Assembly: GCA_036172245.1 (NCBI GenBank)
Contig: JAYWIR010000026.1
Span: forward strand, 806,001-870,000
Reading direction: 5' to 3'
DNA: 64,000 nucleotides
Source of the DNA: Raillietiella orientalis
Taxonomy: Eukaryota
Positions 22,971 through 64,000 of this stretch are shown here, one piece after another. The notes beneath the pieces were generated by a model. The model saw only the letters and a program-made list of their open reading frames with translations. It was not told where the DNA came from and ran no database searches. The translations under genes were made by a program, and so were the position numbers. Position 1 is the stretch's first letter. Each line of letters starts with the position of its first letter.

Positions 22971-23445
22971 TTTTCACCCGGTCAAGCCGGGGCGTTTATT
23001 TAAAAACTAACAGTATTTGCGGTACTAGGCCCCGCTGCGGCCAATAGTTCTATGGAGCTGTCTGGTGGTCAGTGCACAGACCAACATAACACTCCACGTC
23101 AACGGATGGGGTTAGGGAAAAAACAAAAATAAAAAAAAATAAAAAGTAGAAACACTGGTCATTGGGAGGGACGGAAAGGGATCACTGTCCGTTGCGTGGA
23201 GCTTCAATTCTTTGCAGGATGCCGACAAGGTCCTGATACAGATTTCCCAGGTGGGGCCATCGGGATGCTATTCGCAGAAAGCGAGCTGCATACTTCATGG
23301 CATTCCTTCTGTTAACATCCTCTGCTTCGTCGAATCCACTCCAAGCTGCCACAATACCGAGTACGCAGCAGAGAGCTGCTATTACAGCAGCTGGCTGCAG
23401 GGCGTCCCGCACGAAGAGGAGCCGAAAAACGTCTCTGGGAAGTGG
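22971..23445 (-). mobile_element. Family B 3' end
   Basis: RDVFRLLFVRDALQPAA..SRWPHL; terminus AATAAACGCCCCGGCTTGACCGGGTGAAAA. Confidence 0.88.
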
Positions 23446-25872: not shown

Positions 25873-26457
25873 GAATCCCAATGAGCAAGAATCCCTCCTG
25901 CACCTTTTATTTGACTGTGCTGCCCTCCGGCCCCTTTGGAAACGCTTCGGTTCCACCTTAGGCTTCCTGGAAGGTAGTCTTCCCAGAGACATTTTCCGGT
26001 TTCTCTTCGTACCGGACTCCCTGCATCCAGCCGCTGTCGTAGTAGGTCTCAGCTGCGTGCGCGTTAGTGTGGCAGCTTGGAGTGGATCCGACGAAACAGA
26101 AGATGTTAACGGAAGCGATGTCACGTAGTCTGCAGCTCGCCTTCTGCGAATAGCAAGCCGATGTCCCCAACTAGGAAATCTGCACAAGGATTGCGTCGGC
26201 ATCCTGTAAAGGATGGAATGTATACGCAACGAACAGTGATTTCTTCCCACTTCTCCGAGGAACCGTGGCTTTTGCCTAAATTTGTCTTCACTTTTATTTT
26301 TGTTTCGTCCTTAACCTCATCCGCTGACGTAGTCTTTCAAGTCGGTCTGCGCATCGACCATCCTAGAAATCTATACACTCACTGGTCACAGAGGGGCCTT
26401 GTACCGCAAATACTGTAAGTCTTTTTAAATAAACGTCCCAGCTTGAGCAAGTGAAAA
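25873..26457 (+). mobile_element. Family B 3' end
   Basis: ESLLHLLFDCAAL..RDIFRFLFV; terminus AATAAACGTCCCAGCTTGAGCAAGTGAAAA. Confidence 0.87.
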
Positions 26458-43780: not shown

Positions 43781-44214
43781 GAGCGGACCTTCGCCGAATA
43801 CGGGGGGCGGGCGATCCAAGGAAAACTGCTCGCAGAACTCTCGGACCGAGGCCTTTGAAAGGTCCCAATCCGGAAGACTCTGGAGCGTGATGCTACTCAG
43901 GAATTCGCGAAGGCGTTCGTTCGCACCTGAGAGTCGCGTCCAGTCCCCCGGCGGACGCCACTCCCTGAATGGCGGTCCCTTGTTGCGAGCCCGCATCTCG
44001 AAAATTAGCCGGGAATGGTCCGACAGCGTCGAGGCAATCTTCCCCCGTTTGCCGACCCGTGAACACAAGTCAGCGTCGAGGATGACGTGGTCAATGCTGC
44101 GGACCATTCCCCTCTCACCCGTTAACAAGTTGCGCGCACGCATGGCGGCGCACAACTCATTCATCGCGTTCACTTGTGTTTCAGGATCACCTGTTAGCAG
44201 GCAGAGATTGAAAT
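43781..44214 (-). mobile_element. Family E endonuclease C-terminal fragment (host of copy A3)
   Basis: FNLCLLTGDPETQVNAMNELC..SIDH..SDH, homologous to 61955-62385. Confidence 0.9.
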
Positions 44215-46417
44215 TTTTCACCCGGTCACGCCGGGGCGTTTATTGAAAATAAATCGGTCAAAGACAATGTCTTTAACCAAAGAAACGACAGGGAGAAAAG
44301 AGAAGTTACCGGCACACAGGTCTGGTTAACAAACCGCTTCCAACAACACTGAGGGAGTAGAGGGATAACAAACAAAAATCAAAATCTCGAGGGAGGGGTA
44401 ACATGTCTTTGGTGAAGCTCCGTACTCACGGGAATTCCAATAGAGAGCACCTAAAATGTTCCGGAGCCTAATAGGGCGAAAGTGGAAAGAAAAAAAAAAA
44501 AACATTTGAAGGGGGCGAGGGAAAAGGTTCACCGGGTGCGCTGTTGGGTATCGTCTGTAAACCGTCGACGTACGCTAGCGAGATCCCTTTTCGTATCCTC
44601 GGTCAATTGAGGCCATCTGGCGGCTCCTTCCATATAGAAAGATGCTTTGCTGATCACCTCTTGGTACTGCTTGGTGATTATCAGCGCCTGGCGGACGGAA
44701 ACTATCGCGCGTATGCAACCGATGATTGCAATCCTTGCGCTTAGTGACAGCCCGCTCGGCGTGAAGAATCGTCGCAGCAAATCTCTTGCGGTGTCCACGG
44801 GATGCATTAGTGCTGTTGCCAGCCTACGCCACAGTCCTTGTAGGACACCGCAGTCCAGAAGTAGGCGCGGAATCGACTCGGTCGATCCGCACCGAACGCA
44901 GTTCGCAGACGCAAGTCCCCCGGAGTCACGATGCCAACGCTCGTTGCACTGAAAACCCCAGTGAACGAAAAGCAGCACGGCTTGTTTCCAAGCAAGAAGG
45001 AGCAGCGAACTGTCGACACACTGTGGAGGGACTACAAGTTCTTCGGGGGTGACACCAAGTTCTTCTGCCCACCGGAGGAGTCCCTTTGCAGTAACACGAG
45101 GAGTGGCGGCGTCCGCCAGCTCACTCGTCTTCCAGGCGCCAAGGAGTTTGGTTTTTCCCACTATCGTGCAGGAAACCTCCCACCTCGCCGGTTGGTAACT
45201 GTCGTTTCTTGCCTCGAGGGCAGACAGCGCTGCGGCAAGAGGCGTGGCAGCCAGGGTAGAAAACTTCACCTCGTCCTGCAAAACTTCTTATAAGGATCAT
45301 GGAGAAAATTGGCGCAGGGGGCGAAGATCTTCAGGGCGTTTTCCTTGGAACGCCGCCCAGGATTCAACACACTCCTGCCAACAAGCTTCAAAGTTCATTG
45401 GGCGGCAGGAGATCCACGAGTAAGCTTCCAGAAGTGCGGTCAACTGCCGCAATGGAAACCCGAAACCCCGCTTCCTGTATTTAGTGCTTCGCAAAAGCGA
45501 GAGAAATCCTCCGCTGCCGGCGCATCTCCGCAGGAGAATGCGGGCTGGCACACACAGGGGGGATGTCCATAGCTGGGCACACAGTGCCAGCAGTCGGAAC
45601 TGCACCTGCAGTCCGATTCGCTCCATTGTCAGGATACCCAAACCAGCATCCCGACGCGGAGCAACCAAATCTTTAAGGCGGATCCTAAATCTCGCCGGAC
45701 CCTAGAGAACGTTCCTGAGCAGGCGTTTAGACCGCTGTTTCGCCCCATGGGGGGGTCCAAAACAAAAAACCAGGGACGGAAGAGGGGGGCCACAAAGGTG
45801 TTCCAAATAGTCGCCCGTTCCTGCAAGGTGAACTTGCCGTTAATGAACGGGCTGATGGCCAACTCTGCTTTCTAAAGACAGTCCGCCCACGCTTCGGCTG
45901 CGCCGACAGCGCCCAACGGAACGCCAAGGTACTTAAAGTACCCGCCCGTGGGGATCCTCAGACGGATAAAGTCGGACTGCCCCTCCCACGACGCACCCAC
46001 AGGAACGACCACGCTCTCCTCTCTGTTTACGCTCACGCCCGCTCCCCGACGAATCAGGTCGAAGAAATCCTCGACACTAGACGCCGGGGTGGACATGGGG
46101 AGCAGAAGAAGCAGGTCATCAGCGTAGGCGGCCACGGCAGGCGTACCCGGGGAGGAGCATGGCAAGTGAGACAGGGTCAGCCTGCACGCTCTCAGCACCA
46201 ACTCAAAGAAGATGCTAAAGAGCAACGGGCTCAAGCTGCCGCCCTGTGGGATGCCCCTACGCACGGGAATACCGTACACGCGGCAGCCGCTGAAAGTGAT
46301 GCAGGTTAGTGCGTGGCACCAGCAGGCGCGCAAATACAGCAGGAGTTCTGCCGGGAACCCAAGGCGTTCCATAAGCTCCAAGAGCAGCTTCTGGTTTACG
46401 CAGTCGAACGCCTTGTG
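44215..46417 (-). mobile_element. Family A copy A3, 3' part (RT to 3' end), degenerate
   Basis: Highly similar to 53838-56039 with a diverged 3' UTR; interrupted by D at HKAFD. Confidence 0.95.
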
Positions 46418-47823
46418 CGCTCTAGGGTGGACGTGTTTTCTCGGTGCTCCTCGTGCCAGGAAGTCTCCCCCAGTGCAAGCGTCGTGTGGTTCTGTGGTCG
46501 ATCAGCGAGCGATGCCTGACGCGACCACCAGGAATGGCCAGGGGGCAGCGGCAACGCCGCCCCCAGAGGCGATGGAGAGCCAGGGGGCGGCGGCAACGTC
46601 GCCCCCGGAGGCGATGGAGGTGGGGGCATCCACCCCCACAGAATCGGTCCCCGCTGCAGCGCGGGCGTGGAGCGCCGTTGTGTCGGCGCCATCGCCTGCA
46701 GCCGCGGTGGAATTGTCGGCCTATGTGGAGGAGGGGTACAACCCCTCATTGTTCTACAAGGTAGGCAATTTATATTCCTTAGAGAGCGCGCGCGCCTTCT
46801 CGAAGGGCATGCGCGCTCTCGATGTGAAAGAGGAGGAGCTTAGCGCTATGACCATCCGCAGCGGGGGTCAGTACGTTGAGGTCATCTGCAAACATGCAGA
46901 GCTGGCCCAACGACTGCTTAAAACCCCCGTTGTGATGGGGACGCGCAGGCTTCTCCCCACTACGGCGGACCGCAGCATGGTGGTCCACCTGTTAGGCGTG
47001 ACCGCGCGAATGCGCAAAGAACAGGTTCGCGCCGCTTTGGAACAGTTCGGAACGGTCCACGCGCAGTGGACGAAAGTAAGTCCTTTCGAGGACTACACGG
47101 GGCTGCAACACGGCCTCACTGCTGCGCGCGTGACCGTTCGGGAGGGCTGCACTCTTCCCCACAAACTGGTGGTCGAAGGCGAAACCGTCGACCTCTGGTA
47201 TGTGGGGAAGCCGAAATACTGCGGCTTCTGCAATACGTCGGGCCACCTCAAAAAGAGGTGTCCCAATGTGCAGTGCCAAGTATGCGGCACAATGGGCCAC
47301 ACGAGGAAGGTGTGCCCAAAAGCAGCAGTGCGGGTGGTTTCCAAGAGAAACCTTAAAAAACGCGCCCGGCTTCTGCAAAAAAGGCTGGCGGCGAAAGCTG
47401 CTGCGAAGGCTGTGCCCCCCGCGCCCAAGACCCAGGCCGCACCCGAGACCCCGCCGACAAACGCCGAAAAAGTTGAGGGAGCCGGCCAGGAGACTGGGTG
47501 GCAAGTGGCAACGGCCAAAAAATCAAAGAAGGAGAGGAGGATGGAAAAAAAAATCGCCTACCAACAGAAGAAGAAAGAGCAGGGTAGCGCGATAATTAAA
47601 GAGTGCAGCGTCGTTGTCGAACGCGTTCTCGATGTTGCCGAACGCTGCCGGAAAGAACTCGCCGCTACCGACAACCTCCCCTCTGTTGACACAGTCAACA
47701 GCGAGGGGAGCGAGCCGGCGGCGGCGTCCGTCATCGACACCACCATCGATGACGTAGCCTTCGCGCGAGCCGCGGAGGAGCTGGCAGCCTCCTTGCAGCC
47801 AGAACCCTCCACGGCCAGTAGGA
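46418..47823 (+). mobile_element. Family D copy: 5' UTR and ORF1 (ATG 46512), interrupted by E
   Basis: GGACGTGTTTT, 42-nt duplicated QGAAATxPPEAME unit, two CCHC knuckles. Confidence 0.93.
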
Positions 47824-50133
47824 GGACGTGTTTTTCCTTCACTCCCCAAAGAGTAGTAGGAAAGCGCTTTTTCTTCTGTGTGGTGTTTTGTGTACATCGT
47901 CGGTGTCCAATGGCCACGACGCCAGAGGACACCGCCATGGAGGTGGGAGTGGGGGAGGCTAGTTCGCCCCCACAGCCTACTGGAGCAGGGGCAGCCGCCC
48001 CGGAATCATCCCCGGCCACGCCGAGGACATGGAGCGCCATGGTGGCCGCGCCCAGCGCAGAAGCCATAGCGGAGATGGCCGCATACAAGGCCTCCGGGTA
48101 CAAGCCATCGCTTGTCTACCAGGTAGGCAACTTGTTCGACGGCCGGACAGCGCGCGCCTTCAGCAAAGCGTTGAAGGACGCGACTGTTAATGAGAAGGAT
48201 CTGGACGGCCTCTCCGTCCTCAGCGGCGGGCAGCGGGTCGAGGTGGTCTGCAAAGATGTCACCTTGGCTCACCGCCTAATCCATGCGCCGCTGAACGTAG
48301 ACGGCCGCAAGATCCTGCCAGTATCAATGGACCGCTCCGTGGTGGTCCACATGACTGGCATCACCAGCCGCATGACGCGGTCAGCGGTTGGTGAGGAATC
48401 GCGAAAGTACGGTGAGGTGCACGCACTGTGGCCGAAACCCTCCATTTTCGACGGCTTCGATAGCCTTTTTGGTGGGCAGGCTGCAGCGCGGGTCACCGTA
48501 CGGGAGAATTGTGGGCTTCCCCACAAACTACAGGTGGCGCAAGAAAACGTCGACCTGTGGTATGTAGGGAAGCCCCGGTATTGCGGGCATTGTGATACCG
48601 TGGGACACCTACGTAAAAGGTGTCTCAATATACAATGCCATTTGTGCGGGGAGCGGGGCCACGTTCGGCGCGTGTGCCCCAAACGCCCCACCCCGGTTCC
48701 CCCTGCCGCGAAAAAAGCGCAGGGGAAACGCGCTTCAAAGGTCTCTAGACCTAAAGTAGAAAAGGGCCAGCACAAGCCGCCAACACCTCAACCTCCGGAG
48801 CGTAAGGCGGAGGATAAACCTTCTGAAACGGTGGAAGGCGAAGAGGGATGGCAGCTTGTAGAGGCCAGAAAGCCGAGGAAACTCCCACCCGCGGAGAGCA
48901 AAGAGCGCAAGACGGCCGGCCGGTAAGCCGAAGAAACCCGGTCGGCGCTCTAAGACCATGCGGGAGTGTACGGTAGCACTGGAACGAATCGTCGTTCCCG
49001 AGATTGCCACCCGGAGCGTCGATCCTCCCCTTGCCGTTTCCGCTGCGCCCGAGGCTCGCGACAGCGAACCCTCTGTTTACACAGAGGGTGAGCCGCGCGA
49101 CATAGCGGCGGTCGAAGCCGCGGACGCCGCGTTCGCGCAAGCGGCGGAGGAGCTCGCGGTCACGCTGGCCGAGCGTGAGAACCCCTCGCGCAAGGCCGTG
49201 CGAAGGCCGGCTCCGGCGAAGAAGGCCCCCACAGGTGAGTTAGACCTGGGGGCCGGAAGCACATCCTCCTCCTCGGAGGCACCCCCCAGGAAGTGGGGAC
49301 GCAAGTCCCAGAAGCCCAGGAGGCGCCTCCCCTCCACCAGCGAGGAGGAGAAGACGGAAGCCGTCGCCAGCGTGGGAAATTCGGAGGAGGAATTCCCACG
49401 CTCGGAAGTCGTCGATGCGGCCACCCCCATGGAGGAGGGTGAACAGGGGGGTGAAGTCCCCCCTGCAGGCGCCGACCCTGAACATCCCGCCCCCATGGAG
49501 GAGGGCGAACAGGTAGGCGCGACTCCACCTGCGGGTGATCCGGCCGACGCGCCGGCACCGATGGAGGAGGGGGACCAGGTGCCTTCAGCACCTGACCCCC
49601 CTCCTCCACCTAGCGTCCCGCCCCAGCAGGTGGCGGACGCCGCACTGCCATCTTCCCAGGAGTAACACCTGGGCTCGCCAGTCGCCGTCGGATTCGCGCG
49701 GCCTGTTGGAATGTCAACGGGCTGCGCGACGACGGTAACAGGCGAGATACAGCCGACACCCTGCGTGAGCTCGACCTGGCCCTGCTGCAGGAGATCCACG
49801 TGATCACCGCGGCAGACGTCCAGGAGATCGAGACGATCGCGGGAGGTCGGCTGTACTGGCAATGCGGCATCCGCAACACCTGCGGGGTCGCGTTCTTCGT
49901 GAAGCCGGCCATCGACGCTGCCGTGAAGAACGTGCGCTTCGATGACGACGGTCGGGTCGGTCAGCTGACTCTCGGCTGGTCGGACTCGATCGATCTGATC
50001 GTCACGAATGTGTACGCCCCAACCGGTCAAAAGGGATACAGCAACCGTACCAGGCTGCTTGAATCCTTGAAGCGCGACTGGCTGGCGAAAACGAGCGTGC
50101 GGAAGGCTCACCTGATAGCGGGAGATTTCAATC
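47824..50133 (+). mobile_element. Family E 5' part: ORF1 (47910-49665, one frameshift near 48920) and endonuclease up to GDFN
   Basis: GGACGTGTTTTT, CCHC knuckles, PMEEG repeats, WNVNG, LLQEIH, NVYAP, AGDFN. Confidence 0.95.
50125..50133 (+). repeat. Target-site duplication ATTTCAATC (also 56040-56048, 61955-61963; minus strand 44206-44214)
   Basis: Exact 9-mer at each family A boundary. Confidence 0.95.
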
Positions 50134-50211
50134 GAGTGCGGACGTGTTTTTCTTCGCTCTCGTCTCCGTGCTTTCATCCGCTTCATCTTGGCGTCGTACA
50201 TTTTGACGACG

Positions 50212-52134
50212 ATGTCGACCCAACTTGAAGCTACTGAAGCTGGAGGAACAGCATCCGGATCTGCAATCGCGGAACCGACGGCCGCCTCCACTTCGTCTTT
50301 CTCGCCAATGGACAGGAGATTTGCTGACGTTGCTGCCACAGCAGCCGTCAAAGGGAAACCACTCGACGAGTCGGAGTTGCGGGCATACGTAGCCCAAGGC
50401 TATAGACCTGCTCTCCGATATAAGGTGAGTGGTTTTCTTTCTGCGCGCGACGGGAATCAGTTCAACGATGAACTGACGCGTGTTGGCGTGCGGGAGGAGG
50501 ACCTTCTCGCCATTATGCCCGTAAAAGACATGGGCTATTTCAAGGTGCGTTGCAAAGACGCTGCACTTGTGCAACGTTTGCTGCGCACCCCGTTGTCGAT
50601 CCGTGGCCAGAAGGTCTTCCCGGCCGCCATGGACGACTAATTTGTGGTGGAGATTTTCGACATCGAGTCGGAAATCTCCGATACTGATATTCGGAACGCG
50701 TGGGCAGAATTCGCCACAGTCCATACGCTGTGGAGGGTGCGTAGCAACCTCAAGGACTTCCCGTCCATACACAGCGGAGTCGCTGGAGTCCGGCTTACAA
50801 TGCCGGACCGCCGTCTGCTGCCCACGAAACTACAGGTGAAAGACACGGTCGTTCACCTGTGGTTCGTGGGCAAAGTAAAAACGTGCGAGCAATGCGGGAA
50901 GGAGGGGCATTGTTTGGATAAATGCCCCTCTGGAAAATGCCGTTATTGCAAACTATCCGGGCACCAATTGAAAAATTGCCCGGATCTTTTGCGAAAAAAG
51001 GCAGCCGCGGAGCTCCATTTTAAAAAACAAAGCGCGGATAAAAAGAAAAAATCTGCGAAAAAGCTGGAGACCCCACGGCAGAAATTCGGTAAAAACGCGA
51101 GGCGGAATGTCGCCCCAAAGCAGCAGGAAACCTCGCACGCGAAGCCCTGCGCACCCCCTCTCGCGGCAGGGGAGCCGCAAAAGAAAGGGTGCGGGGAATC
51201 CGGGGCAATGGTAAGTCCCCCTAGGCGCAATAGCTGTCCTTCCCAAGCACGCCCGGCTCTTTCGGAGTTCGAGCAACCGGCGGGGACGTCAATGGACAAC
51301 GGCGGTAAGGACACTTCCAGTACCGTCAGATCCATTCCCTCACCTCCTGCAGTGGCTGAGAAGCCCAAATCGGGTAAGAAGGGTTGTGCCGTGTCGACTT
51401 CGAAAGTTGGCAAAAAAAAATCCGCGTCGCGATCCAACACCGCGAAGGCGGAGAAGAATCTCACGCCGTCGCAGTCAGAGAGCAAGCTCTCGACTGGCGC
51501 GGATGCCATGCCAAAGAAGGGAGTAAAAGCCCTTCCGAAGGCAGCGTCCATGACGAGCGTGTCGAACCCATCGAAAGTGCTCCCGTTTAAAGACGCGGAT
51601 GGCTTCAAAGATGGCAATGGAGCACAATCTCCATTTACGGCGCCACGCGAAGTGAGGAACCGTAATGAAGTTAAGAAGACTTCAGCAAAGGTCCCTCGTG
51701 CAACTGCGCGTGAGCACGCTGAAAACGCGCGCGCCGGGAAAGCAGCCGTCACCAAAAGCGATGCCCTGGTGACGGAAAACGAAACCAGGACAGCTGTCAA
51801 TCCAGCAGAACCTGTCACTGCTTCGCGGAAGGCCGAAATCCGATCGAACATGCGCCGGTCGGACTCCGAAATGGATGCCGTTCCGATCACCGAGACGAGG
51901 ACAACTCGTTCGAAAGCGTGTGCGCGCCGATCAAAAGTAGGCAGCCAGGCAACGCTCGCCGCGAAGCAACGCGAAGTCTCCACGAAACCCGACGGGGTTC
52001 AGCCTGGCGTGGAGGCATTACATGCATGCAGCACGACAGAGGACGGTGGCGACCGTCCCCTCCAGCCAGTCGTGCTGCTCGCCGTCTGCTCGCCGGATAA
52101 AGCGAGCAAAAAGCCGCCACCTTCCCAGCAGTAA
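50212..52134 (+). pseudogene. A1 ORF1 (two CCHC knuckles) with a single nonsense codon
   Basis: TAA at 50638-50640 where A2 has TCA; CEQCGKEGH..CRYCKLSGH. Confidence 0.92.
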
Positions 52135-55100
52135 TGCGGGGAATCGCGTCTTCTCGTCGTCTGTCCGTAACGTGTTGGAACGTGAACGGAATACAGAACG
52201 ACGAGAAGAGGCGATTAGTAGCCAACGCCCTGCGCCCCTTCGACCTCGCGCTCCTGCAGGAGATTCACGTAATCTCCGACGAGCAGTCAGCCGAAATCGA
52301 GGATCGCGCAGGCGGAACGCTACATTGGCGGTGCGGCGGCGCACACACGTGCGGCGTCGCGTTCCTCGTAAGAGTAAAAATGGCGGAAGCGGTGCGTAGT
52401 GTTCGTTTCGATGACAACGGACGGATAGGCCAGCTTGTCATCAAGTGGTCCGAGTCCATCGATCTCGTCGTTACGAACGTCTACGCGCCGAGTGGCTCTC
52501 GCTACCTCGAAGAAAGAGTAGCTTTCTTTGGTGAGGTGCAGAGCCAGTGGCTCAACAACTCCGGTTTCCAAGTGGCGCACCTCGTCGCTGGGGACTTCAA
52601 CGTCCGCCTGCTCTCCGACGATTGGAGCCGCCCGAGGGAGCGCGCGCTGCCCATCGAGATGTGCGCGTCCGTGCACGCCGCCAACTTGATGGTCAGCGAA
52701 CCTGGAATGGAAAGATCGCTCGATCACGTTTTCCTCGATGAAAACCTGCATTCGCGTGTGGGCAGGAGAGGAAGATTGTTGACTAGGCTTTCTGACCACC
52801 ACAGGTTGGAGTTTGAGATCCTTCCGCCAGGCAGGGGGCCTCCGTTGCAAAACTGGAGGATGCAGGCGGATTGGCTTAGCCAACCGGAGGCTGCGGAGCA
52901 TCTACGTAGATACCTCCGAGGCTTTGCCATTCAAGAACTTGCGGACTGGGACGATCTCAAAAGATCTGTCCGCGAGTTCTGCTGCCAATTCCCCTTGCAC
53001 CGGCTTCCACGCGGTTTCGGAGAGGGCGTGGCCAACAGTAGAGACTTTCTGCAGGCCCGCACGTTTTCGAGACGCGCGGATGTCGGGCGTCTCGCGGAGT
53101 ACAAGGCGAGGGCCGAGCGCCAGGTCTGGGAGTCCGGAGCAGCATGCCTGTTGGACGACAAGGGCCAGGAATGTTCGGCCCCAGCCGAAGTACGCCGCAT
53201 TGTGGGACGCTACTACTCCTCGCTCTACGCGGATTCCCCGACGGAGGATATTCTTTCTGAGATACTCCTGTCTCAGGATGCTCGTGTTGTCGGCGAGGAG
53301 GAACGCGAACGTCTCGACGAGCCCTTCACGGCGGATGAATTTTCGTCCGCCATCGCTGGGCTGAAGAGACGAAAGGCGCCAGGCGAGGATGGGCTCCCTG
53401 CAGAGTTTTATCAGTGCTTTGCAGTGGAGCTCATTCCCTTGATGCTTAAACTCGCGAAGCTGATGAGTGAATCCGGGAATGTCCCTGATTCCTTCCGCTC
53501 AGCGAAGGTGCGTCTCCTGCCGAAAGGCGGAGACTTGCGCCAACTTAACAACTGGCGTCCGATCACCTTGGTGAACTCGGACGTCAAGTTGTTTTCCAAA
53601 CTGTGGGTCGCGCGGTTAGGAAGAATCGCGGAATCTGTGGTGAGCCCGGAACAAACCTACGCGGTTCCGGGACGATCCATGGAGGCGAACATCCTTTTCG
53701 CGCGTACATGGATGCAGCTGCAGGAAGTTGTGGCGCAGCAAAGCCAGGCTGCTGCGAACGTCACTGCCGCAGGCAAAAAGAACAGGCGCCGACGGCAGGA
53801 GGGAACGCCAGGTGCCTTGGCGGTCGCGGTCGATCTCCACAAGGCGTTCGACTGCGTAAACCAGAAGCTGCTTTTGGAGCTTATGGAACGCCTTGGGTTC
53901 CCGGCGCAACTCCTGCTGTATTGGCGCGCGTGCTGGCGCCACGCGCTAACCTGCATCACTTTTAGCGGCTGCCGCGTGTATGGTATTCCCGTTCGTAGGG
54001 GCATCCGACAGGGCGACAGCTTAAGCCCGTTGCTCTTCAGCATCTTCTTTGAGTTGGTGCTAAGAGCATACAGGCTGACGCTGTCTCACTTGCCAAGCTC
54101 CTGCCCGGGAACGCCTGCCGTGGCCGCCTACGCTGATGACCTGCTTCTTCTGCTTCCCATGTCCACCCCGGCGTCCAGTGTCGAGGATTTCTTCGACCTG
54201 ATTCGTCGGGGAGCGGGCGTGAGCGTGAACAGAGAGAAGAGCGTGGTCGTTCCTGTGGGTACGTCGTGGGAGGGGCAGTCCGACTGGATCCGCCTGGGGA
54301 TCCCCACGGGCGGGTACTTTAAGTACCTTGGCGTTCCGTTGGGCGCTTTCGGCGCAGCCGAAGCGTGGGCGGACTGTCTTCAGAAAGCAGAGTTGGCCAT
54401 CAGCCCGTTCTTTAACGGCAAGTTTACCTTGCAGGAACGGGCGACTATTTGGAACACCTTTGTGGCCCCTCTCCTCCGTCCCCTGTTTTTTGTTTTGGAC
54501 CCCCCCTATGCGGCAAAACAGCGGGCTAAGCGCCTGCTCAGGAACGCTCTCTGGGGTCCGGCGAGATCCAGGATCCGCCTTAAAGATTTGTCAGCTCCGC
54601 GTCGGGATGCTGGTTTGGGTATCCTGACAATGGAGCGAATCGGACTGCAGGTGCAGTTCCGACTGCTGGCACTGTGTGCCCAGCTATGGACATCCCCCCT
54701 GTGTGTGCCAGCTCGCATTCTCTTGCGGAGATGCGCCGGCAGCGGAGGATTTCTCTCGCTTTTGCCGGGCACTCAATACAGGAAGCGGGGTTTCGGGTTT
54801 CCATTGCGGCAGTTGACCGCACTTCTGGAAGCACACTCTTGGATCTCCTGCCGCCCAATGAACTTTGAAGCTTGGCGGCAGGAGTCTGTTGAATCCTGGG
54901 CGGCGTTCCAAGGAATACGCCCTGAAGATCTTCGCCCCCTGCGCCCATTTTTTCCACGATCCTTGGAAGAAGTACTGCAGGACGAGGTGAAGTTTTCTAC
55001 CCTGGCTGCCACGCCTCTTGCCGCAGCGCTGTCTGCCCTCAGGGCAAGAAACGACAGTTACCAACCGGCGAGGTGGGAGGTTTCCTGCACGATAGCGGGA

Positions 55101-55727
55101 AGAACCAAACTCCTTGGCACCTGGAAGACAAGTGAGTTGGCGGACGCCGCCACTCCTCGTGTTACTGCAAAGGGACTCCTCCGGTGGGCAGAAGAACTTG
55201 CTGTCATCCCCGAAGAACTTGTGGTCCCTCCACAGTGTATGGACAGTTCGCTGCTTCCCCTTGCTTGGAAACAAGCCGTGCTGCTTTTCGTTCACTGGGG
55301 TTTTCAGTGCAACGAGCGTTGGCATCGTGACTCCGGGGGACTTGCGTCTGCGAACTGCGTTCGGTGCGGATCGAGGGAGTCGATTCCGCACCTACTTCTG
55401 GACTGCGGTGTCCTACAAGGACTGTGGCGTAGGCTGGCAACAGCACTATTGCATCCCGTGGACACCGCAAGAGACTTGCTGCGACGATTCTTCACGCCGA
55501 GCGGGCTTTCACTAAGAGCAAGGATTGCAACCATCGGTTGCATACGCGCGATAGTTTCCGTCCGCCAGGCGTTGGTAATCAACGGACAGCACCAAGAGGT
55601 AATCAGCAAAGCATCCTTCTACATGGGAGCATCCGCTAGATGGCCTCATTTGACAGAGGAGACAAAGAGGAATCTCGCCGCAATACACCGCCGGTTTACA
55701 CACCCTCATCAGCGGCCAACCCGGTGA
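52134..55727 (+). CDS. A1 ORF2: intact APE endonuclease / reverse transcriptase / CCHC protein, 1197 aa
   Basis: WNVNG, LQE, NVYAP, GDFN, LDH, SDH; KAPGEDG, WRPITL, DLHKAFD, QGDSLSP, YADD, KYLG; CVRC..HLLLDC. Confidence 0.98.
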   Translation: MRGIASSRRLSVTCWNVNGIQNDEKRRLVANALRPFDLALLQEIHVISDEQSAEIEDRAGGTLHWRCGGAHTCGVAFLVRVKMAEAVRSVRFDDNGRIGQLVIKWSESIDLVVTNVYAPSGSRYLEERVAFFGEVQSQWLNNSGFQVAHLVAGDFNVRLLSDDWSRPRERALPIEMCASVHAANLMVSEPGMERSLDHVFLDENLHSRVGRRGRLLTRLSDHHRLEFEILPPGRGPPLQNWRMQADWLSQPEAAEHLRRYLRGFAIQELADWDDLKRSVREFCCQFPLHRLPRGFGEGVANSRDFLQARTFSRRADVGRLAEYKARAERQVWESGAACLLDDKGQECSAPAEVRRIVGRYYSSLYADSPTEDILSEILLSQDARVVGEEERERLDEPFTADEFSSAIAGLKRRKAPGEDGLPAEFYQCFAVELIPLMLKLAKLMSESGNVPDSFRSAKVRLLPKGGDLRQLNNWRPITLVNSDVKLFSKLWVARLGRIAESVVSPEQTYAVPGRSMEANILFARTWMQLQEVVAQQSQAAANVTAAGKKNRRRRQEGTPGALAVAVDLHKAFDCVNQKLLLELMERLGFPAQLLLYWRACWRHALTCITFSGCRVYGIPVRRGIRQGDSLSPLLFSIFFELVLRAYRLTLSHLPSSCPGTPAVAAYADDLLLLLPMSTPASSVEDFFDLIRRGAGVSVNREKSVVVPVGTSWEGQSDWIRLGIPTGGYFKYLGVPLGAFGAAEAWADCLQKAELAISPFFNGKFTLQERATIWNTFVAPLLRPLFFVLDPPYAAKQRAKRLLRNALWGPARSRIRLKDLSAPRRDAGLGILTMERIGLQVQFRLLALCAQLWTSPLCVPARILLRRCAGSGGFLSLLPGTQYRKRGFGFPLRQLTALLEAHSWISCRPMNFEAWRQESVESWAAFQGIRPEDLRPLRPFFPRSLEEVLQDEVKFSTLAATPLAAALSALRARNDSYQPARWEVSCTIAGRTKLLGTWKTSELADAATPRVTAKGLLRWAEELAVIPEELVVPPQCMDSSLLPLAWKQAVLLFVHWGFQCNERWHRDSGGLASANCVRCGSRESIPHLLLDCGVLQGLWRRLATALLHPVDTARDLLRRFFTPSGLSLRARIATIGCIRAIVSVRQALVINGQHQEVISKASFYMGASARWPHLTEETKRNLAAIHRRFTHPHQRPTR

Positions 55728-56048
55728 TCATTGCCCTACCCTCCATAAACTAAATTTGTATTTTCTTTTACACCCGCGTCCCCATAGGCTCCGGAACATT
55801 TGAGGTGCTCATCGTTTAAATCCCCGTGAGTACGGAGCCTAACCAAAAACCCTTTTCCCTTCCCTCCAGTTTTTGATTTTTGTTTGTTTCCCCTCATTCC
55901 CCCCACGCTGCGAGCGGTTTGTTTACCAGGCCTGCGTGCCGGTAATTTTTCTATGTTCTCCGTCGTTCTCTTGGTTGGGGACATTGTCCCTGACCAGTTT
56001 ATTATTATTAATAAACGCCCCGGCGTGACCGGGTGATAAATTTCAATC

Positions 56049-59000
56049 GAGTGCGGACGTGTTTTTCTTCGCTCTCGTCTCCGTGCTTTCATCCGCTTCA
56101 TCTTGGCGTTGTACATTTTGACGACGATGTCGACCCAACTTGAAGCTACTGAAGTTGGAGGAACAGCATCTGGATCTGCAATCGCGGAACCGACGGCCGC
56201 CTCCACTTCGTCTTTCTCGCCAATGGAGAGGAGTTTTGCTGACGTTGCTGCCACAGCAGCCGTCAAAGGGAAACCTCTCGACGAGTCGGAGTTGCGGGCA
56301 TACGTAGCCCAAGGCTATAGACCTGCTCTCCGATATAAGGTGAGTGGTTTTCTTTCTGCGCGAGACGGGAATCAGTTCAACGATGAACTGACCCGTGTTG
56401 GCGTGCAGGAGGAGGACCTTATCGCCATTATGCCCGTAAAAGACATGGGCTATTTCAAGGTGCGTTGCAAAGACGCTGCACTTGTGCAACGCTTGCTGCG
56501 CACCCCGTTGTCGATCCGTGGTTAGAAGGTCTTCCCGGCCGCCTTGGACGACTCATTTGTGGTGGAGATTTTCGACATCGAGTCGGAAATCTCCGATACT
56601 GATATTCGGAACGCGTTGGCGAAATTCGCCACGGTCCATGCGCTGTGGAGGGTGCGTAGCAACCTCAAGGACTTCCCGTCCATACACAGCGGAGTCGCTG
56701 GAGTCCGGCTTACAATACCGGACCGCCGTCTGCTGCCCACCAAAGTACAGGTGAAAGACACAATCGTTCACCTGTGGTTCGTGGGCAAAGTAAAAACGTG
56801 CGAGCAATGCGGGAAGGAGGGGCATTGTTTGGATAAATGCCCCTCTGGAAAATGCCGTTATTGCAAACTATCCGGGCACCAATTGAAAAATTGCCCGGAT
56901 CTTTTTCGAAAAAAGGCAGCCGCGGAGCTCCATTTTAAAAAACAAAGCGCGGATAAAAAGAAAAAATCTGCGAAAAACCTGGAGACCCCACGGCAGAAAT
57001 TCGGTAAAAACGCGAGGCGGAATGTCGCCCCAAAGCAGCAGGAAACCTCGCACGCAAAGCCCTGCGCACCCCCTCTCGCGGCAGGGGAGCCGCAAAAGAA
57101 CGGGTGCGGGGAATCCGGGGCAATGGTAAGTCCCCCTAGGCGCAATAGCTGTCCTTCCCAAGCACGCCCAGCTCTCTCGGAGTTCGAGCAACCGGCGGGG
57201 ACGCCAATGGACAACGGCGGTAAGGACACTTCCAGTACCGTCAGATCCATTCCTTCACCTCCTGCAGTGGCTGAGAAGCCCAAATCGGGTAAGAAGGGTT
57301 GTGCCGTGTCGACTTCGAAAGTCGGCAAAAAAAAATCCGCGTCGCGATCAAACACCGCGAAAGCGGAGAAAAATCTCACGCCGTCGCAGTCGGAGAGCAA
57401 GCTCTCGACTGGCGCGGATGCCATGCCAACGAAGGGATTAAAAGCCCTTCCGAAAGCAGCGTCCATGACGAGCGTGTCGGAGCCATCGACAGTGCTCCCG
57501 TCCAAAGACGCGGATGGCTTCAAAGATGGCCATGGAGCACAATCTCCATTTACAGCGCCACGCGAAGTGAGGAACCGTAATGAAGTAAAGAAGACTTCAG
57601 CAAAGGTCCCTCGTGCAACTGCGCGTGAGCACGCTGAAAACGCGCGCGCCGGGAAAGCAGCCGTCACCAAAAGCGATGCTCTGGTGACGGAAAACGAAAA
57701 CAGGACAGCTGTCAATCCAGCAGAACCTGTCACTGCTTCGCGGAAGGCCGAAACCCGATCGAATATGCGCCGGTCGGACTCCGAAATGGATGCCGTTCCG
57801 ATCACCGAGACGAGGACAACTCGTTCGAAAGCGTGTGCGCGCCGATCAAAAGTAGGCAGCCAGGCAACGCTCGCCGCGAAGCAACGGTAAGTCTCCACGA
57901 AACCCGACGGGATTAAGCCTGGCGTGGAGGCATTACATGCTTGCAGAACGACGGAGGACGGTGGCGACCGTCCCCTCCAGCCAGTCGTGCTGCTCGCCGT
58001 CTGCTCGCCGGATAAAGCGAGCAAAAAGCTGCCACCTTCCCAGCAGTAATGCGGGAAATCGCGTCTTCTCGTCGTCTGTCCGTAACGTGTTGGAACGTGA
58101 ACGGACTGCAGAACGACGAGAAGAGGCGATTAGTAGCCAACGCCCTGCGCCCCTTCGACCTCGCGCTCCTGCAGGAGATTCACGTAATCTCCGACGAGCA
58201 GGCAGCCGAAATCGAGGAGCGCGCAGGCGGAACGCGACATTGGCGGTGCGGCGGCGCACACACGTGCGGCGTCGCGTTCCTCGTAAGAGGAAAAATGGCG
58301 GAAGCGGTGCGTAGTGTTCGTTTCGATGACAACGGACGGATAGGCCAGCTTGTCATCAAGTGGTCCGAGTCCATCGATCTCGTCGTTACGAACGTCTACG
58401 CGCCGAGTGGCTCTCGCTACCTCGAAGAAAGAGTAGCTTTCTTTGGTAAGGTGCAGAGCCAGTGGCTCAACAACTCCGGCTTCCAAGTGGCGCACCTCGT
58501 CGCTGGGGACTTCAACGTCCGCCTGCTCTCCGACGATTGGAGCCGCCCGAGGGAGCGCGCGCTGCCCATCGAGATGTGCGCGTCCGTGCACGCCGCCAAC
58601 TTGATGGTCAGCGAACCTGGAATGGAAAGATCGCTCGATCACGTTTTCCTCGATGAAAACCTGCATTCGCGTGTGGGTAGGAGAGGAAGATTGTTGACTG
58701 AGCTTTCTGACCACCACAGGTTGGAGTTTGAGATCCTTCCGCCAGGCAGGGGGCCTCGGTTGCAAAGCTGGAGGATGCAGGCGGATTGGCTTAGCCAACC
58801 GGAGGCTGCGGAGCATCTACGTGGATACCTCCGGGGCTTTGCCATTCAAGAACTTGCGGACTGGGACGATCTCAAAAGATCTGTCCGCGAGTTCTGTTGC
58901 CAATTCCCCTTGCACCGGCTTCCACGCGGTTTCGGAAAGGGCGTGGCCAACAGCAGAGACTTTCTGCAGGCCCGCACGTTTTCGAGACGCGCGGATGTCG

Positions 59001-61954
59001 GGCGTCTCGCAGAGTACAAGGCGAGGACCGAGCGCCAGGTCTGGCAGTCCGAAGCAGCAGACCTGTTGGACGACAAGGGCCAGGAATGTTCGGCCCCAGC
59101 CGAAGTACGCCGCATTGTGAGACGCTACTACTCCTCGCTGCACGCGGAATCCCCGACGGAGGATATTCTTTCTGAGATACTCCTGTCTCAGGATGCTCGT
59201 GTTGTCGGCGAGGAGGAACGCGAACGTCTCGACGAGCCCTTCACGGCGGATGAATTTTCGTCCGCCATCGCTGGGCTGAAGAGACGAAAGGCGCCAGGCA
59301 AGGATGGGCTCCCTGCAGAGTTTTATCAGTGCTTTGCAGTGGAGCTCATTCCCTTGATGCTTAAACTCGCGACGCTGATGAGTGAATCCGGGAATGTCCC
59401 TGATTCCTTCCGCTCAGCGAAGGTGCGTCTCCTGCCGAAAGGCGGAGACTTGCGCCAACTTAACAACTGGCGTCCGATCACCTTGGTGAACTCGGACGTC
59501 AAGTTGTTTTCCAAGCTGTGGGTCGCGCGGTTAGGAAGAATCGCGGAATCTGTGGTGAGCCCGGAACAAACCTACGCGGTTCCGGGACGATCCATGGAAG
59601 CGAACATCCTTTTCGCGCGTACATGGATGCAGCTGCAGGAAGTTGTGGCGCAGCAAAGCCAGGCTGCTGCGAAAGTCACTGCCGCAGGCAAAAAGAACAG
59701 GCGCCGACGGCAGGAGGGAACGCCAGGTGCCTTGGCGGTCGCGGTCGATCTCCACAAGGCGTTCGACTGCATAAACCAGAAGCTGCTTTTGGAGCTTATG
59801 GAACGCCTTGGGTTCCCGGCGCAACTCCTGCTGTATTTGCGCGCGTGCTGGCGCCACGCGCTAACCTGCATCACTTTTAGCGGCTGCCGCGTGTATGGTA
59901 TTTCCGTTCGTAGGGGCATCCGACAGGGCGACAGCTTAAGCCCGTTGCTCTTCAGCATCTTCTTTGAGTTGGTGCTAAGAGCATACAGGCTGACGCTGTC
60001 TCACTTGCCAAGGTCCTGCCCGGGAACGCCTGCCGTGGCCGCCTACGCTGATGACCTGCTTCTTCTGCTCCCCATGTCCACCCCGGCGTCCAGTGTCGAG
60101 GATTTCTTCGACCTGATTCGTCGGGGAGCGGGCGTGAGCGTGAACAGAGAGAAGAGCGTGGTCGTTCCTGTGGGTACGTCGTGGGAGGGGCAGTCCGACT
60201 GGATCCGCCTGGGGATCCCCACGAACGGGTACTTTAAGTACCTTGGCGTTCCGTTGGGCGCTTTCGGCGCAGCCGAAGAGTGGGCGGACTGTCTTCAGAA
60301 ATCAGAGTTGGCCATCAGCCCGTTCTTTAACGGCAAGTTTACCTTGCAGGAACGGGCGACTATTTAGAACACCTTTGTGGCCCCCCTCCTGCGTCCCCTG
60401 TTTTTTGTTTTGGACCCCCCCTATGCGGCAAAACAGCGGGCTAAGCGCCTGCTCAGGAACGCTCTCTGGGGTCCGGCGAGATCCAGGATCCGCCTTAAAG
60501 ATTTGTCAGCTCCGCGTCGGGATGCTGGTTTAGGTATCCTGACAATGGAGCGAATCGGACTGCAGGTGCAGTTCCGACTGCTGGCACTGTGTGCCCAGCT
60601 ATGGACATCCCCCCGTGTGTGCCAGCTCGCATTCTCCTGCGGAGATGCGCCGGCAGCGGAGGATTTCTCTCGCTTTTGCCGGGCACTCAATACAGGAAGC
60701 GGGGTTTCGGTTTTCCATTGCGGCAGTTGACCGCACTTCTGGAAGCACTCTCTTGGATCTCCTGCCGCCCAAGGAACTTTGAAGCTTGGCGGCAGGAGTC
60801 TGTTGAATCCTGGGCGGCGTTCCACGGAATACGCCCTGAAGATCTTCGCCCCCTGCGCCAATTTTTTCCACGATCCTTGGAAGAAGTACTGCAGGACGAG
60901 GTGAAGTTTTCTACCATGGCTGCCACGCCTCTTGCCGCAGCGCTGTCTGCCCTCGAGGCAAGAAACGACAGTTACCAACCGGCAAGGTGGGAGGTTTCCT
61001 GCACGATAGCGGGAAGAACCAAACTCCTTGGCACCTGGAAGCCAAGTGAGTTGGCGGACCCCGCCACTCCTCGTGTTACTGCAAAGGGACTCCTCCGGTG
61101 GGCAGAAGAACTTGGTGTCACCCCCGAAGAACTAGTAGTCCCTCCACAGTGTATGGACAGTTCGCTGCTCCCCCTTGCTTGGAAACAAGCCGTGCTGCTT
61201 TTCGTTCACTGGGGTTTTCAGTGCAACGAGCGTTGGCATCGTGACTCCGGGGGACTTGCGTCTGCGAACTGCGTTGGGTGCGGATCGACGGAGTCGATTC
61301 CGCACCTACTTCTGGACTGCGGTGTCCTACAAGGACTGTGGCGTAGGCTGGCAACAGCACTATTGCATCCCGTGGACACCGCAAGAGACTTGCTGCGACG
61401 ATTCTTCACGCCGAGCGGGCTTTCACTAAGCGCAAGGATTGCAACCATCGGTTGCATGCGCGCGATAGTTTCCGTCCGCCAGGCGTTGGTACTCAACGGA
61501 CAGCACGAAGAGGTAATCAGCAAAGCATCCTTCTACATGGGAGCATCCGCTAGATGGCCTCAATTGACAGAGGAGACAAAGAGGAATCTCGCCGCAATAC
61601 ACCGCCGGTTTACACACCCTCATCAGCGGCCAACCCGGTGATCATTGCCCTACCCTCCATAAACTAAATTTGTATTTTCTTTTTACACCCGCGTCCCCAT
61701 AGGCTCCGGAACATTTTAGGTGCTCATCGTTTAAATCCCCGTGAGTACGGAGCCTAACCAAAAACCCGTTACCCTTCCCTCCAGTTTTTGATTTTTGTTT
61801 GTTTCCCCTCATTCCTCCCACGCTGCGAGCGGTTTGTTTACCAGGCCTGCGTGCCGGTAATTTTTCTATGTTCTCTGTCGTTCTGTTGGTTAAGGACATT
61901 GTCCCTGACCAGTTTATTATTATTAATAAACGCCCCGGCGTGACCGGGTGATAA
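56049..61954 (+). mobile_element. Full-length family A element A2 (5906 bp), inactivated
   Basis: Tandem with A1. ORF1 stops at 56523 and 57888; ORF2 TAG at 60365 and a frameshift near 60612. Confidence 0.97.
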
Positions 61955-64000
61955 ATTTCAATCTCCGCCTGCTAACAGGTGAGCCGGAAACACAAGTGAA
62001 CGCGATGAACGAGTTGTGCGCCGCCATGCGTGCGCGCAACTTGTTCTCGGGTGAGAGGGGAATGGTCCGCAGCATCGACCACGTCTTCCTCGACGCTGCC
62101 CTGTGTTCACGGGTCGGCAAACGGGGGAGGGTTGCGTCAACGTTGTCGGACCATTTCCGGTTAATTTTCGAGATGCGGCCTCGCGACAAAGGACCGCCAT
62201 TCAGAGACTGGCGTCTGCCGGGGGACTGGACGCGACTCTCAGGTGCGAAGGAACACCTTCGCGAATACCTGAGAGGCGTCACGCTCCGGAATCTCCAAGA
62301 CTGGGACCTTTTTAAGGAATCGGTCCGGGAATTCTGCGAGCAGTTCCCCCTGGACCGCCTGCCCTCCGGATTCGGCGAGGGTCCTCGCAACCATCGGGCC
62401 TATTTACAGGCCCGTAGGTACGAACGAACCCCTAATGTCCGTCGCCTGGCCGAGTACCGCGCCGGGGCCGAACGCCAAGCCTGGCAATCCGGGTCGGCCA
62501 GCTTGCTGGACGACCAGGGCCGGGAATGTTCGTCCCCGGCGTCGGTACGGCATCTCGTGCGGAGCTATTATTCCTCCCTTTACGCCAGGGCGCCCCCGGA
62601 TCAAGATGCCTCTCGGCTCTTGCTTCCGGATGGTGCCCCGGCAATAGGGGAGGAGGAGTCGTTAAGCCTCGATGAGCCTTTTACCACCGGCGAAATTCTC
62701 GCCGGTATCAAAAGGCTCAAGAGGCGGAAAGCTCCAGGGGAAGACGGCTTGCCCGCGGAGTTCTATCAGAGCTTCGCGGTAGAGCTGGCACCCCTGCTGC
62801 TTCAGCTGACAAGGCTGATCAGAGACGAAGGCGATGTTCCCGCCTCGTTTCGGTCAGCCAGAGTGAGGCTCCTGCCGAAAGGGGGAGACCTCAGGGATTT
62901 AAAGAACTGGCGTCCGATCACGATCGTGAATACGGACGCCAAGTTGATCGCAGGGTTATGGGCTTAGCGTCTGGGGCAGGTGGCAGAATCCGTAATTAGC
63001 CCGGAGCAGACTTATGCTGTTCCCGGGCGAAGTATGGATGCCAACCTCTTCTTCGCGAGCACGTGGATGCACGCGCAGAGGTGTCAAAAGGAAGGGAAAG
63101 GAAAAATCGGCAACCCCACTTTGGGGCCGCCAGCAGGGCAGGGAATGGATTCCCGGGCGGGGAAGGGGGCCTTAGCGCTCGCAGTCGATCTCCATAAGGC
63201 GTTCGACTGTGTTGACCAGGGGCTTTTGTTGGAGCTCCTGGGTCGCATGGGCTTCCCACCCTCCTTGATCAACTACCTGCGCTCCTGCTGGCGCCATGCG
63301 ATAGTTTCCGTCTCTTTCAGCGGTCAGAAGGTGCATGGCGTGCCGGTGCGGCGGGGCATCAGGCAGGGAGATAGCCTGAGTCCCCTGCTCTTCAGCACCT
63401 ACTTTGAGTTGGTGCTGAGAGCCTACAGGGTGACTTTGGCCTCCTTGCCTAGCTCGTGTCCCGGCACGCCCGCCGTAGCAGCCTATGCCGACGACCTTCT
63501 GCTCCTGTTACCTATGTCCACCCCGGCGAAGGCGGTCGGAGACTTCTTCGATCTCCTCAGCCGTGGGACCGGACTGCAGGTCAACAGGGCGAAGTCGTCG
63601 GTGGTGCCAGTAGGTGCGGCGTGGGCAGGGCAGCAGGACTGGGTCCGTCTGGGGATCCCCACGGCCAGGTGCCTCAAGTACCTTGGTGTGCCGTTGGGTG
63701 ACTACTCCCCTGCGGAAGCGTGGTCCAGCTGTCTTCCAAAAGTCGTGACGGCGATCGGCCCGTTCCTGGAAGGCAAGTTTCACTTGCCGGAACGGGCCGC
63801 GGTTTGGAACGCCTTCGCGGCCCCCATCCTCCGCCCCTTGCTTTTTGTTTGCCCCGCCCCCAGAGAATGCAAAAAGAGGACGAAGGACCTCCTCCGCATC
63901 GCCCTTTGGGGCAAGGGGAGGCCCCGAGTCCCTCTGCAGGACTTGTGCGCTCCGCGTCGGGACGGCGGCCTTGACCTCCTGACGCTGGAGCGCGTGGAAA
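61955..64000 (+). mobile_element. Family E ORF2 continuation (endonuclease end and RT), runs off window
   Basis: Resumes FNLRLLTGEPETQ exactly where 50133 stopped; TAG at 62965; DLHKAFD, QGDSLSP, YADD. Confidence 0.95.

Follow-up and report, generated by a model that had tools for sequence, protein, structure and literature searches.

Nucleotide-exact insertions among sibling LINE families in a nested retrotransposon locus of Raillietiella orientalis

Introduction

Site-specific long interspersed nuclear elements (LINEs) target multicopy genes of the host, microsatellites or a few unrelated transposons, and target-primed reverse transcription is the accepted mechanism for the Tx1- and R1-type elements. 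Nested LINE islands are formed by elements such as Zepp, which carries a poly(A) tail, and we know of no sequence rule for them. Here, we analyse 64,000 nucleotides (nt) from Raillietiella orientalis (GenBank assembly GCA_036172245.1, contig JAYWIR010000026.1, positions 806,001 to 870,000 of the forward strand), referred to below as the window, in which related LINE families, among them A, D and E, are nested within one another between positions 43781 and 64000. The same exact junctions recur between these families, and the insertions of D and of a further family, Z, are independent events. We consider it likely that the nest is the product of a guild, or web, of sibling LINEs that target, with nucleotide precision, the motif codons in open reading frame 2 (ORF2) of their relatives.

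Among the described systems, Tx1-type LINEs insert at fixed sites in other transposons: Tx1L is found in the piggyBac element Tx1D, Tx1-Mar in Mariner-N4_AMi, and Tx1-8_Crp and Tx1-4_AMi in long terminal repeat (LTR) retrotransposons (PMC4494074, PMC6719617). Tandem insertions that sandwich a target duplication have been described for SINEU-3, which is mobilised by Tx1 (PMC4494074). As far as the excerpts of these papers go, the elements described here are similar in that they are LINEs with an apurinic/apyrimidinic endonuclease (APE), enter a fixed sequence inside another transposon, shift specificity between close relatives and form tandems that sandwich a duplication; the likeness is one of traits and not of phylogenetic clade placement. 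In contrast to the Tx1-type cases in these excerpts, the insertions hit sibling LINEs with a shared architecture, at the catalytic-motif codons G-D-F-N, F-D-D and H-K-A-F-D, and several families target one another in one nest. Sequence-specific insertion is seen for A (five junctions), D (two targets and a contig) and Z (three targets), and a short target duplication, a 9-mer, for A.

Zepp in Chlorella and Coccomyxa and ZeppL in Chlamydomonas are L1-type LINEs whose GC-rich clusters are nested in their own copies; the clusters are described as one family, in C. reinhardtii a single ZeppL family, and consist mostly of 5'-truncated 3' ends (PMC8226300, PMC3446292). Similarly, L1-like LINEs pile into existing LINE copies at the locus described here and give GC-rich nests in lower-GC surroundings. 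Unlike the clusters in the excerpted reports, this nest involves several families, nucleotide-exact sites, 3' ends that lack poly(A), full-length copies (A1, A2) and elements with a complete 5' end (D, D2, E, H and N); the excerpts of PMC8226300 and PMC3446292 report no fixed insertion nucleotide for Zepp or ZeppL.

R1 and R2 target the 28S ribosomal DNA (PMC1919474, PMC5035012), a conserved multicopy safe harbour with one exact site that is cut by the endonuclease of the element, as may also be the case here. As excerpted, that target is a host gene conserved by host function, whereas the sites in this nest would be conserved by the need of the target element for a working enzyme. Tourist miniature inverted-repeat transposable elements nest in Tourist, and self-nesting transposable element families are found in maize (PMC6719617). 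They share the preference for insertion into relatives, but according to the excerpt they are DNA transposons or LTR elements with a preference, and not LINEs with exact sites in coding motifs. A full-text literature search, which did not extend to Repbase reports and subscription journals, returned no description of LINEs that target motifs of sibling LINEs.

Results

Recurrent insertion of A in the G-D-F-N codons of E

Elements were mapped by self-BLAST, stop-to-stop ORFs, Pfam and tblastn with the ORFs of the best copy, A. All coordinates are positions in the window, and the family letters other than A, D and E are labels coined in this analysis. A first-pass annotation of this DNA had given the nesting order as E > A3 > D > E > A1+A2. 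Self-BLAST, tblastn and the reading of the junctions bear this order out, with the following coordinates:

43781..44205, minus strand: E fragment, E ORF2 from about amino acid 165 to 309 in A numbering, target of A3 (from tblastn and junction reading)
44206..44214, minus strand: 9-mer ATTTCAATC at the A3/E junction, target-site copy
44215..46417, minus strand: A3, a copy of A from the HKAFD codons to the 3' end, with several stops; the part upstream is replaced by D
46418..47814, plus strand: D, with full-length 5' end, 5' untranslated region (UTR) and ORF1 (start 46512), the tail of which is cut by E
47815..50124, plus strand: left part of E, with 5' end, ORF1 (start 47910) and endonuclease codons up to G-D
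50125..50133, plus strand: left copy of the 9-mer ATTTCAATC, in the D-F-N codons of E
50134..56039, plus strand: A1, full-length, 5906 nt; ORF2 open over 1208 amino acids, ORF1 with one in-frame stop
56040..56048, plus strand: 9-mer ATTTCAATC between A1 and A2
56049..61954, plus strand: A2, full-length tandem copy; ORF1 with one stop, ORF2 frameshifted
61955..61963, plus strand: right copy of the 9-mer ATTTCAATC
61964..64000, plus strand: right part of E, with the remaining endonuclease and the reverse transcriptase (RT); in-frame stop at 62965-62967; continues past the window

The first base of E is placed within 47805-47824, with GGACGTGTTTTT at 47824. The right-hand remainders of D and A3 that are predicted by the nesting would fall beyond 64000, outside the window. 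The decay of the elements agrees with the nesting order, with a single ORF1 stop in A1, a stop plus a frameshift in A2, one stop in E and several in A3.

A1 and A2 are 97.6% identical (5765/5905 aligned bases), and A3 is 91.7-91.8% identical to either of them. Each of the three A 3' ends runs into the 9-mer ATTTCAATC and from there into the same E sequence (TCCGCCTGCTAACAGG / TCTGCCTGCTAACAGG), and the order around A1 and A2 is left E, 9-mer, A1, 9-mer, A2, 9-mer, right E, which places the 9-mer at five A junctions in all. A1 carries no poly(A) and ends in ...CCGGGTGATAA. The E frame to the left of A1 (49614-50228) matches positions 3-157 of the 225 positions of the Exo_endo_phos profile and E ORF2 resumes at 61954; A1 and A2 therefore interrupt E in its G-D-F-N codons. 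That A lies in E at the same nucleotide twice, with a tandem re-insertion in addition, is supported by the shared 9-mer and E flanks. The pattern of the A-type 3' end matches the window four times, compared with none expected in 100 shuffles, and chance is excluded as the source of the repeated exact junctions. Elsewhere in the window, G-D-F-N sites are present in A1 and A2 themselves and in an ORF2 fragment termed M; these sites deviate from that of E at 3-4 of 15 bases, and none of them is occupied. A is probably sequence-specific for the G-D-F-N codons of E, inserting in sense orientation with a target duplication of 8-9 bp.

Contigs from public sequencing runs show both states of this site. 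One run (X1, 0.39 of words) matched and was used as contigs; there was no RNA run among the matches listed, and runs X2 and X3 gave just chance pieces of 18-32 nt. All X1 contigs described here are among the matches listed, with 74 loose ends and 238 pieces beyond those. One contig joins 50124 to 61955 (shorter side 21 nt) and represents an empty E site, and the contig piece 50104-53858 contains the junction between left E and A.

The E fragment is 88.0% identical to 61964-62388 (374/425). The E flanks are thus diverged at 51/425 positions (12.0%), compared with 181/2178 (8.3%) for the A parts (Fisher p=0.0196, a value that ignores regional differences in rate). Separate entry of younger A copies into older E copies would lead one to expect a higher divergence of the flanks, and this comparison weakly supports independent entry of A3 and of A1/A2 into E.

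The rebuilt E site (50095-50133 joined to 61964-62000) is an imperfect palindrome (GGCTCACCTG..GGAGATT TC AATCTCC..CAGGTGAGCC) with the duplicated bases at its centre. As DNA, it has a minimum free energy of -19.8 kcal/mol and a z of -5.6, which counts in favour of the targeting proposed below, and its rank of just 20-40 of 860 windows within E counts against it; the own site of A has a z of -0.6 and no palindrome. The homologous site of M (19600-19675, minus strand) keeps the outer stem of 9-10 bp with a z of -2.8 (2/200 shuffles fold as well), and the stem is retained through a double change from T:A to G:C (GCT..AGC to GCG..CGC). The predicted hairpin may serve as a lead for the mechanism only. 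The A site could be written as GGAG^ATTTCAAT^CTCC, and nicks at GGAG^AT on both strands would yield a duplication of 8 bp plus an ambiguous C. As the insertion of A would regenerate the duplicated site, another A copy could then be inserted alongside, resulting in site-A1-site-A2-site.

D in the H-K-A-F-D codons of A, E and E-like elements

The 5' end of D, at 46418 (CGCTCTAGGGTGGACGTG...), faces A3 head to head and lies flush against the CAC of the A3 HKAFD codons. The same junction is formed by a second copy of D with an E-like element:

1..1140, minus strand: D2, second copy of D, with its 5' end at 1140 meeting F at the same CAC of the HKAFD codons
1141..3133, plus strand: F, E-like, from the HKAFD codons to the 3' end; target of D2

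D and D2 are 95.4% identical (1082/1134), while the flanks, A3 and F, are 71-74% identical. Since a copied junction would have diverged equally on both sides, D/A3 and D2/F are two independent insertions. A single X1 contig connects 46415 with 63196, the two lying on opposite strands (61 nt for the shorter side, 14 letters fitting both), which puts the 5' end of D on an E-type HKAFD site and constitutes a third D junction. Six exact AAGGCGTTCGAC sites are present in the window, two of them occupied (in A3 and F) and four empty (in A1, A2, E and E3); the HKAFD site in the right part of E, at 63193, is unoccupied, and F' (38749-40622, minus strand), the inverted-repeat twin of F, has an uninterrupted HKAFD site. 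D is therefore a site-specific element, landing antisense in the H-K-A-F-D RT codons of A, E and E-like elements, and the earlier statement that it inserts in A is upheld, as a site-specific event, by an independent D copy in F and by one contig. No palindrome was found at the D site, the HKAFD window of which is placed 468th of 860.

Twin priming or template switching was considered for the head-to-head arrangement of D and A3 and rejected, as D is not A sequence (the ORF1s are 34% identical) and the D end is joined to three partners.

Z in the F-D-D codons of endonucleases

Z is an A-related family with a 3' end nearly identical to that of A. It is represented by three 3' parts:

4287..4441, plus strand: Z1, Z 3' end, antisense in the F-D-D codons of X (4442-4943, minus strand)
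22971..23450, minus strand: Z2, Z 3' part, antisense in the F-D-D codons of X' (22661-22970, plus strand), a different target family
25978..26457, plus strand: Z3, Z 3' part, antisense in the F-D-D codons of X'' (26458-26934, minus strand)

A twin copy of Z1 lies at 37071-37225 within the inverted repeat described below. All three Z 3' ends (4441, 22971 and 26457) meet the target directly after TTCGACG, in the endonuclease F-D-(D) codons, and Z is site-specific for the F-D-D codons of X-type elements, in antisense orientation. Z1 and Z2 are 82% identical and their flanks, X and X', 69.5%; judged by these identities, the Z1/X and Z2/X' junctions arose independently. The occupied F-D-D sites (4454, 22958 and 26458) read TTCGACG and the empty ones (49932, 52401, 58316 and 19838, in E, A1, A2 and M) TTCGATG. 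This difference may be a one-base determinant or escape change, or the CG may belong to the inserted Z end.

At least two families, D and Z, are thus sequence-specific, with A probably a third. The claim that sibling families insert into the coding sequence of relatives at fixed nucleotides, and thereby disrupt the target ORF, stands.

Further junctions and the shape of the insertion graph

The first-pass annotation had also proposed that E inserts in D. The 5' end of E indeed lies inside the D ORF1 tail, and as a D-like relative (20676 to 20129, minus strand) continues for about 350 nt past this point into its ORF2, D is truly interrupted by E there. This junction was, however, seen once, and the 3' ends of E-like elements have no site in common. 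Five readable 3' junctions of E-like and other elements outside A and Z lie in five unrelated sequences: F ends in Y ORF1 (at 3133), K in a D-like ORF1 (at 15276), E3 in M ORF2 (at 19218), W in Y2 ORF1 (at 24070) and another element (at 42896) in the endonuclease of the following element:

40620..42893, plus strand: H, with full-length 5' end, ORF1 and the first 73 codons of ORF2

The 5' end of H meets F' (minus strand) between the T-D and A-K codons of RT, a junction seen once, and an element N with a complete 5' end meets a D-like ORF1. Within 19220-20676 (minus strand), the tail of this D-like ORF1 continues into the ORF2 fragment M, which indicates that the D-type family has an E-like endonuclease (KAHLIAGDFNLRLLTG); the G-D-F-N site of M is three bases off the A target and empty.

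From the nesting order, a closed, non-transitive and self-sustaining cycle had been derived, in which A inserts only in E, D only in A and E only in D. The nesting order E>A3>D>E>A1+A2 is real, A-in-E and D-in-A lie at fixed nucleotides, and the G-D-F-N sites of A itself and of M differ from the E site and are empty, all of which would be in line with such a cycle. We nevertheless find a closed cycle very improbable. The HKAFD codons are common to A, E and E-like elements, and D is found in A3, at the same nucleotide in the E-like F and, in a contig, on an E-type HKAFD site; D thus strikes both A and E. E-into-D is a single case, and the E-like F, K and E3 stop at sequences unrelated to one another, in Y ORF1, D-like ORF1 and M ORF2, respectively. 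Z, H, N, W and G also take part, and the further edges given by H, by N and by contigs with the endonuclease residues VISAEQTQE (see below) make the insertion graph a web. Moreover, the E>A step recurs because A needs the E site, which explains the repetition by itself and requires no cyclic rule. The repeating order E>A>D>E>A in a nest of few families hence follows largely from the specificity of A for E, and would arise from the site rules of the families and not from a closed three-way cycle.

Composition of the nest and architecture of the elements

The window has a GC content of 47-64% in 2-kb bins and contains 0 N. LINE fragments fill about two thirds of it (roughly 1-6.5 kb, 14.6-27 kb and 35-64 kb), and the nest is composed of at least 6-8 related two-ORF families of non-LTR retrotransposons. 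Mapped by tblastn, fragments across the nest share one ORF2 plan, an APE endonuclease (Exo_endo_phos) followed by a reverse transcriptase (RVT_1). In Pfam searches, A ORF2 matched PF03372 at amino acids 26-233 (E 2e-12) and PF00078 at amino acids 474-745 (E 2.4e-21), and the E halves on either side of the A insertion together carry Exo_endo_phos and RVT_1. With an N-terminal endonuclease and then RT in ORF2, the elements are APE-type non-LTR retrotransposons (LINEs).

The ORF1 of plant-L1- and Tx1-like elements typically has an RNA-binding module, an RNA recognition motif together with CCHC knuckles. In the D/E ORF1 frame, zf-CCHC scored 18.8 bits, under the Pfam cut-off of 20.8, and A ORF1 had no Pfam match; CX2CX4HX4C strings are visible in the ORF1 translations. 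Likewise, PF13966 (zf-RVT) was not matched in A ORF2 at E<=0.01, and a CX2C...HX4C string lies close to the C-terminus of A ORF2. A search of a protein collection gave 64 matches, mostly unnamed, with a best identity of 28% and a range of 22-29% among the best relatives; PF13966 is present in many of these 64 distant relatives. An Atlas search returned generic LINE clusters only. Scanning metagenomes for the exact A 3' end found 0 loci, and a scan with A ORF2 found a single distant locus (24% identity), which was not used further.

The families have a 5' start motif and a 3' end motif in common. Across families, the 3' ends stop at ...GTGA(A/T)AA, with no poly(A). RNAalifold predicted no pairs for ten 3' ends; a conserved 3' hairpin was therefore dropped as a candidate, and a conserved 3' sequence motif alone is claimed. 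The start motif GGACGTGTTTTT is found at the 5' ends of A1, A2, D, D2, E and H (7 matches in the window, 3.5 expected). We also noted GGACGTGTTTT 5-18 nt inside six 5' ends of four families, A, D, E and H (positions 1117, 40630, 46429, 47824, 50140 and 56055), and a variant of the start motif, GGACGTGGACTGTG, at about 20684 at the 5' end of N. The shared 5' start motif is possibly a conserved initiator or a 5' UTR signal.

All 11 distinct 3' ends that were found adjoin LINE sequence, ten of them directly and that of A1 via the 9-mer and A2. None of the 11 falls within the low-GC non-LINE DNA, which makes up some 8 kb in each inverted-repeat arm.

Inverted duplication and rearrangement

Positions 1144-14875 are repeated in inverted orientation at 40367-26638, a duplication of 13.7 kb with 99.1% identity and a spacer of 11.7 kb. 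Its low-GC middle is almost identical between the arms, and 66 differences fall in 1100-2100 and 35 in 3100-4600, both LINE parts, a patchy divergence that could be due to gene conversion or to polishing error. The D2 insertion marks the exact end of arm 1, and arm 2 continues through the uninterrupted site. Inside the low-GC, ORF-poor stretch that separates the LINE nests, there is a further inverted repeat of 0.68 kb with 78.5% identity (9070-9755 and 12471-13143; twins at 28369-29041 and 31757-32442).

Some junctions elsewhere in the nest require a deletion or an inversion. Two halves of a D-like ORF1 lie at 14876-15276 (plus strand, amino acids 235-369) and 20491-20676 (minus strand, amino acids 367-429), on opposite strands and with a 9-nt overlap (CGTCGTCGT / CGTCGTTGT); the first meets the K 3' end at 15276 and the second the N 5' end at 20676. 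Either one insertion was followed by an inversion or the same site was struck in two copies. K and M surround E3, with about 1.5 kb missing, and G, a 5'-truncated A-related element (43032-43783), sits between H and the far side of the E fragment. The G-F-G-E-G-P codons hold a breakpoint in M (at 19219/19220) as well as in the E fragment (at 43781); an antisense 3' end interrupts M there, and a sense copy with a truncated 5' end interrupts the E fragment. As the breakpoints are offset by 8-9 nt and not at the same base, G-F-G-E-G-P was rejected as a shared site and the coincidence treated as chance.

One might therefore ask whether LINEs are drawn to LINE DNA in general or to one chromosomal compartment such as a centromere, and whether exact junctions were afterwards multiplied by segmental duplication, inversion and gene conversion. 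The inverted duplication with its mosaic divergence in the LINE parts, the junctions beyond simple nesting and the E-like elements, which lack a common site, would agree with such regional targeting, as would the similar insert and flank identities of A3+E compared with A2+E and of Z1+X compared with Z3+X''. Zepp clusters, according to the excerpted reports, are nested insertions into existing copies (PMC8226300, PMC3446292). However, copies would diverge equally on both sides, and D and D2 as well as Z1 and Z2 are clearly more alike than their respective flanks, while the array site-A1-site-A2-site and the contig with the empty E site fit repeated cutting of one sequence. The idea that all repeated junctions are copies of one ancestral nest thus fails for D and for Z1/Z2, and for A the evidence leans weakly in the same direction. 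On balance, we regard regional targeting as unlikely.

A mis-joining of reads from a highly repeated family could in principle also have produced the nesting order as a chimera. The divergence between the repeat arms is patchy and confined to LINE parts, and the best X1 contig over A1 differs at 49/3755 positions, as might be seen in a faulty assembly. Exact junctions, however, recur in different contexts in the window and with a clean target duplication, and the junction between left E and A, the empty E site and the D/HKAFD junction are independently carried by short-read contigs of the public run. An assembly artefact is thus the least probable explanation, and we consider it extremely improbable.

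Discussion

We propose that the nest was built by a guild of sibling LINEs, each family entering the motif codons of its relatives at its own site. From the exact junctions, we infer a specificity determined by the endonuclease, an order of activity among the families and any benefit they may draw from the arrangement. The APE domain of each family would nick its own site, and insertion would proceed by target-primed reverse transcription. Relatives might serve as safe harbours, as codons for conserved motifs occur in large numbers, change slowly and do the host no harm.

Several observations weigh against this proposal. Neither the 3' junction of D nor the 5' junction of Z was seen, and hence no target duplication can be given for either family. 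The two A-in-E sites could share one origin, and X/Z1 and X''/Z3 may be one copied event (flanks 85%, inserts 80%). No common target motif was found for the 3' ends of F, K, E3, W and the element ending at 42896, so that E-like elements are without a recurrent site, and the junctions that do not fit simple nesting (G, K and M around E3, and the D-like halves) show that rearrangement also shaped the nest. In two X1 contigs (at 44213), an A-like 3' end stands antisense after ...VISAEQTQE of another endonuclease, a junction that does not occur in the window; either the A-like 3' end is common to families with other sites, or the specificity is looser than stated here. Run X1 may come from the same sample as the assembly. 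Finally, the numbers are small and come from a single 64-kb window that also contains the 13.7-kb inverted duplication.

Going beyond the proposed guild, one might speculate that it is self-sustaining, with landing sites solely in the catalytic-motif codons of its members, so that active relatives are needed as fresh targets and are killed on arrival. Relatives that escape through synonymous changes at the cut site would then force the endonucleases to switch specificity rapidly, closed loops such as A>E>D>A would be among the results, and the nest might be a centromere-like LINE island. We put this forward as a tentative and rather doubtful extension. Candidate escape changes are GAT versus GAC in F-D-D and GGA GAT..AAT CTC versus GGG GAC..AAC GTC in G-D-F-N.

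Taken together, the window links the site-specific targeting of LINEs with nested LINE islands, through exact insertion into the endonuclease and RT codons of siblings. If this holds true genome-wide, the families would provide a natural series of related APE endonucleases with different long recognition sites, which could be of use both for understanding and for re-aiming LINE targeting. It would also offer a concrete mechanism for self-building, LINE-only islands, as well as a test bed for parasite-on-parasite dynamics among transposons.

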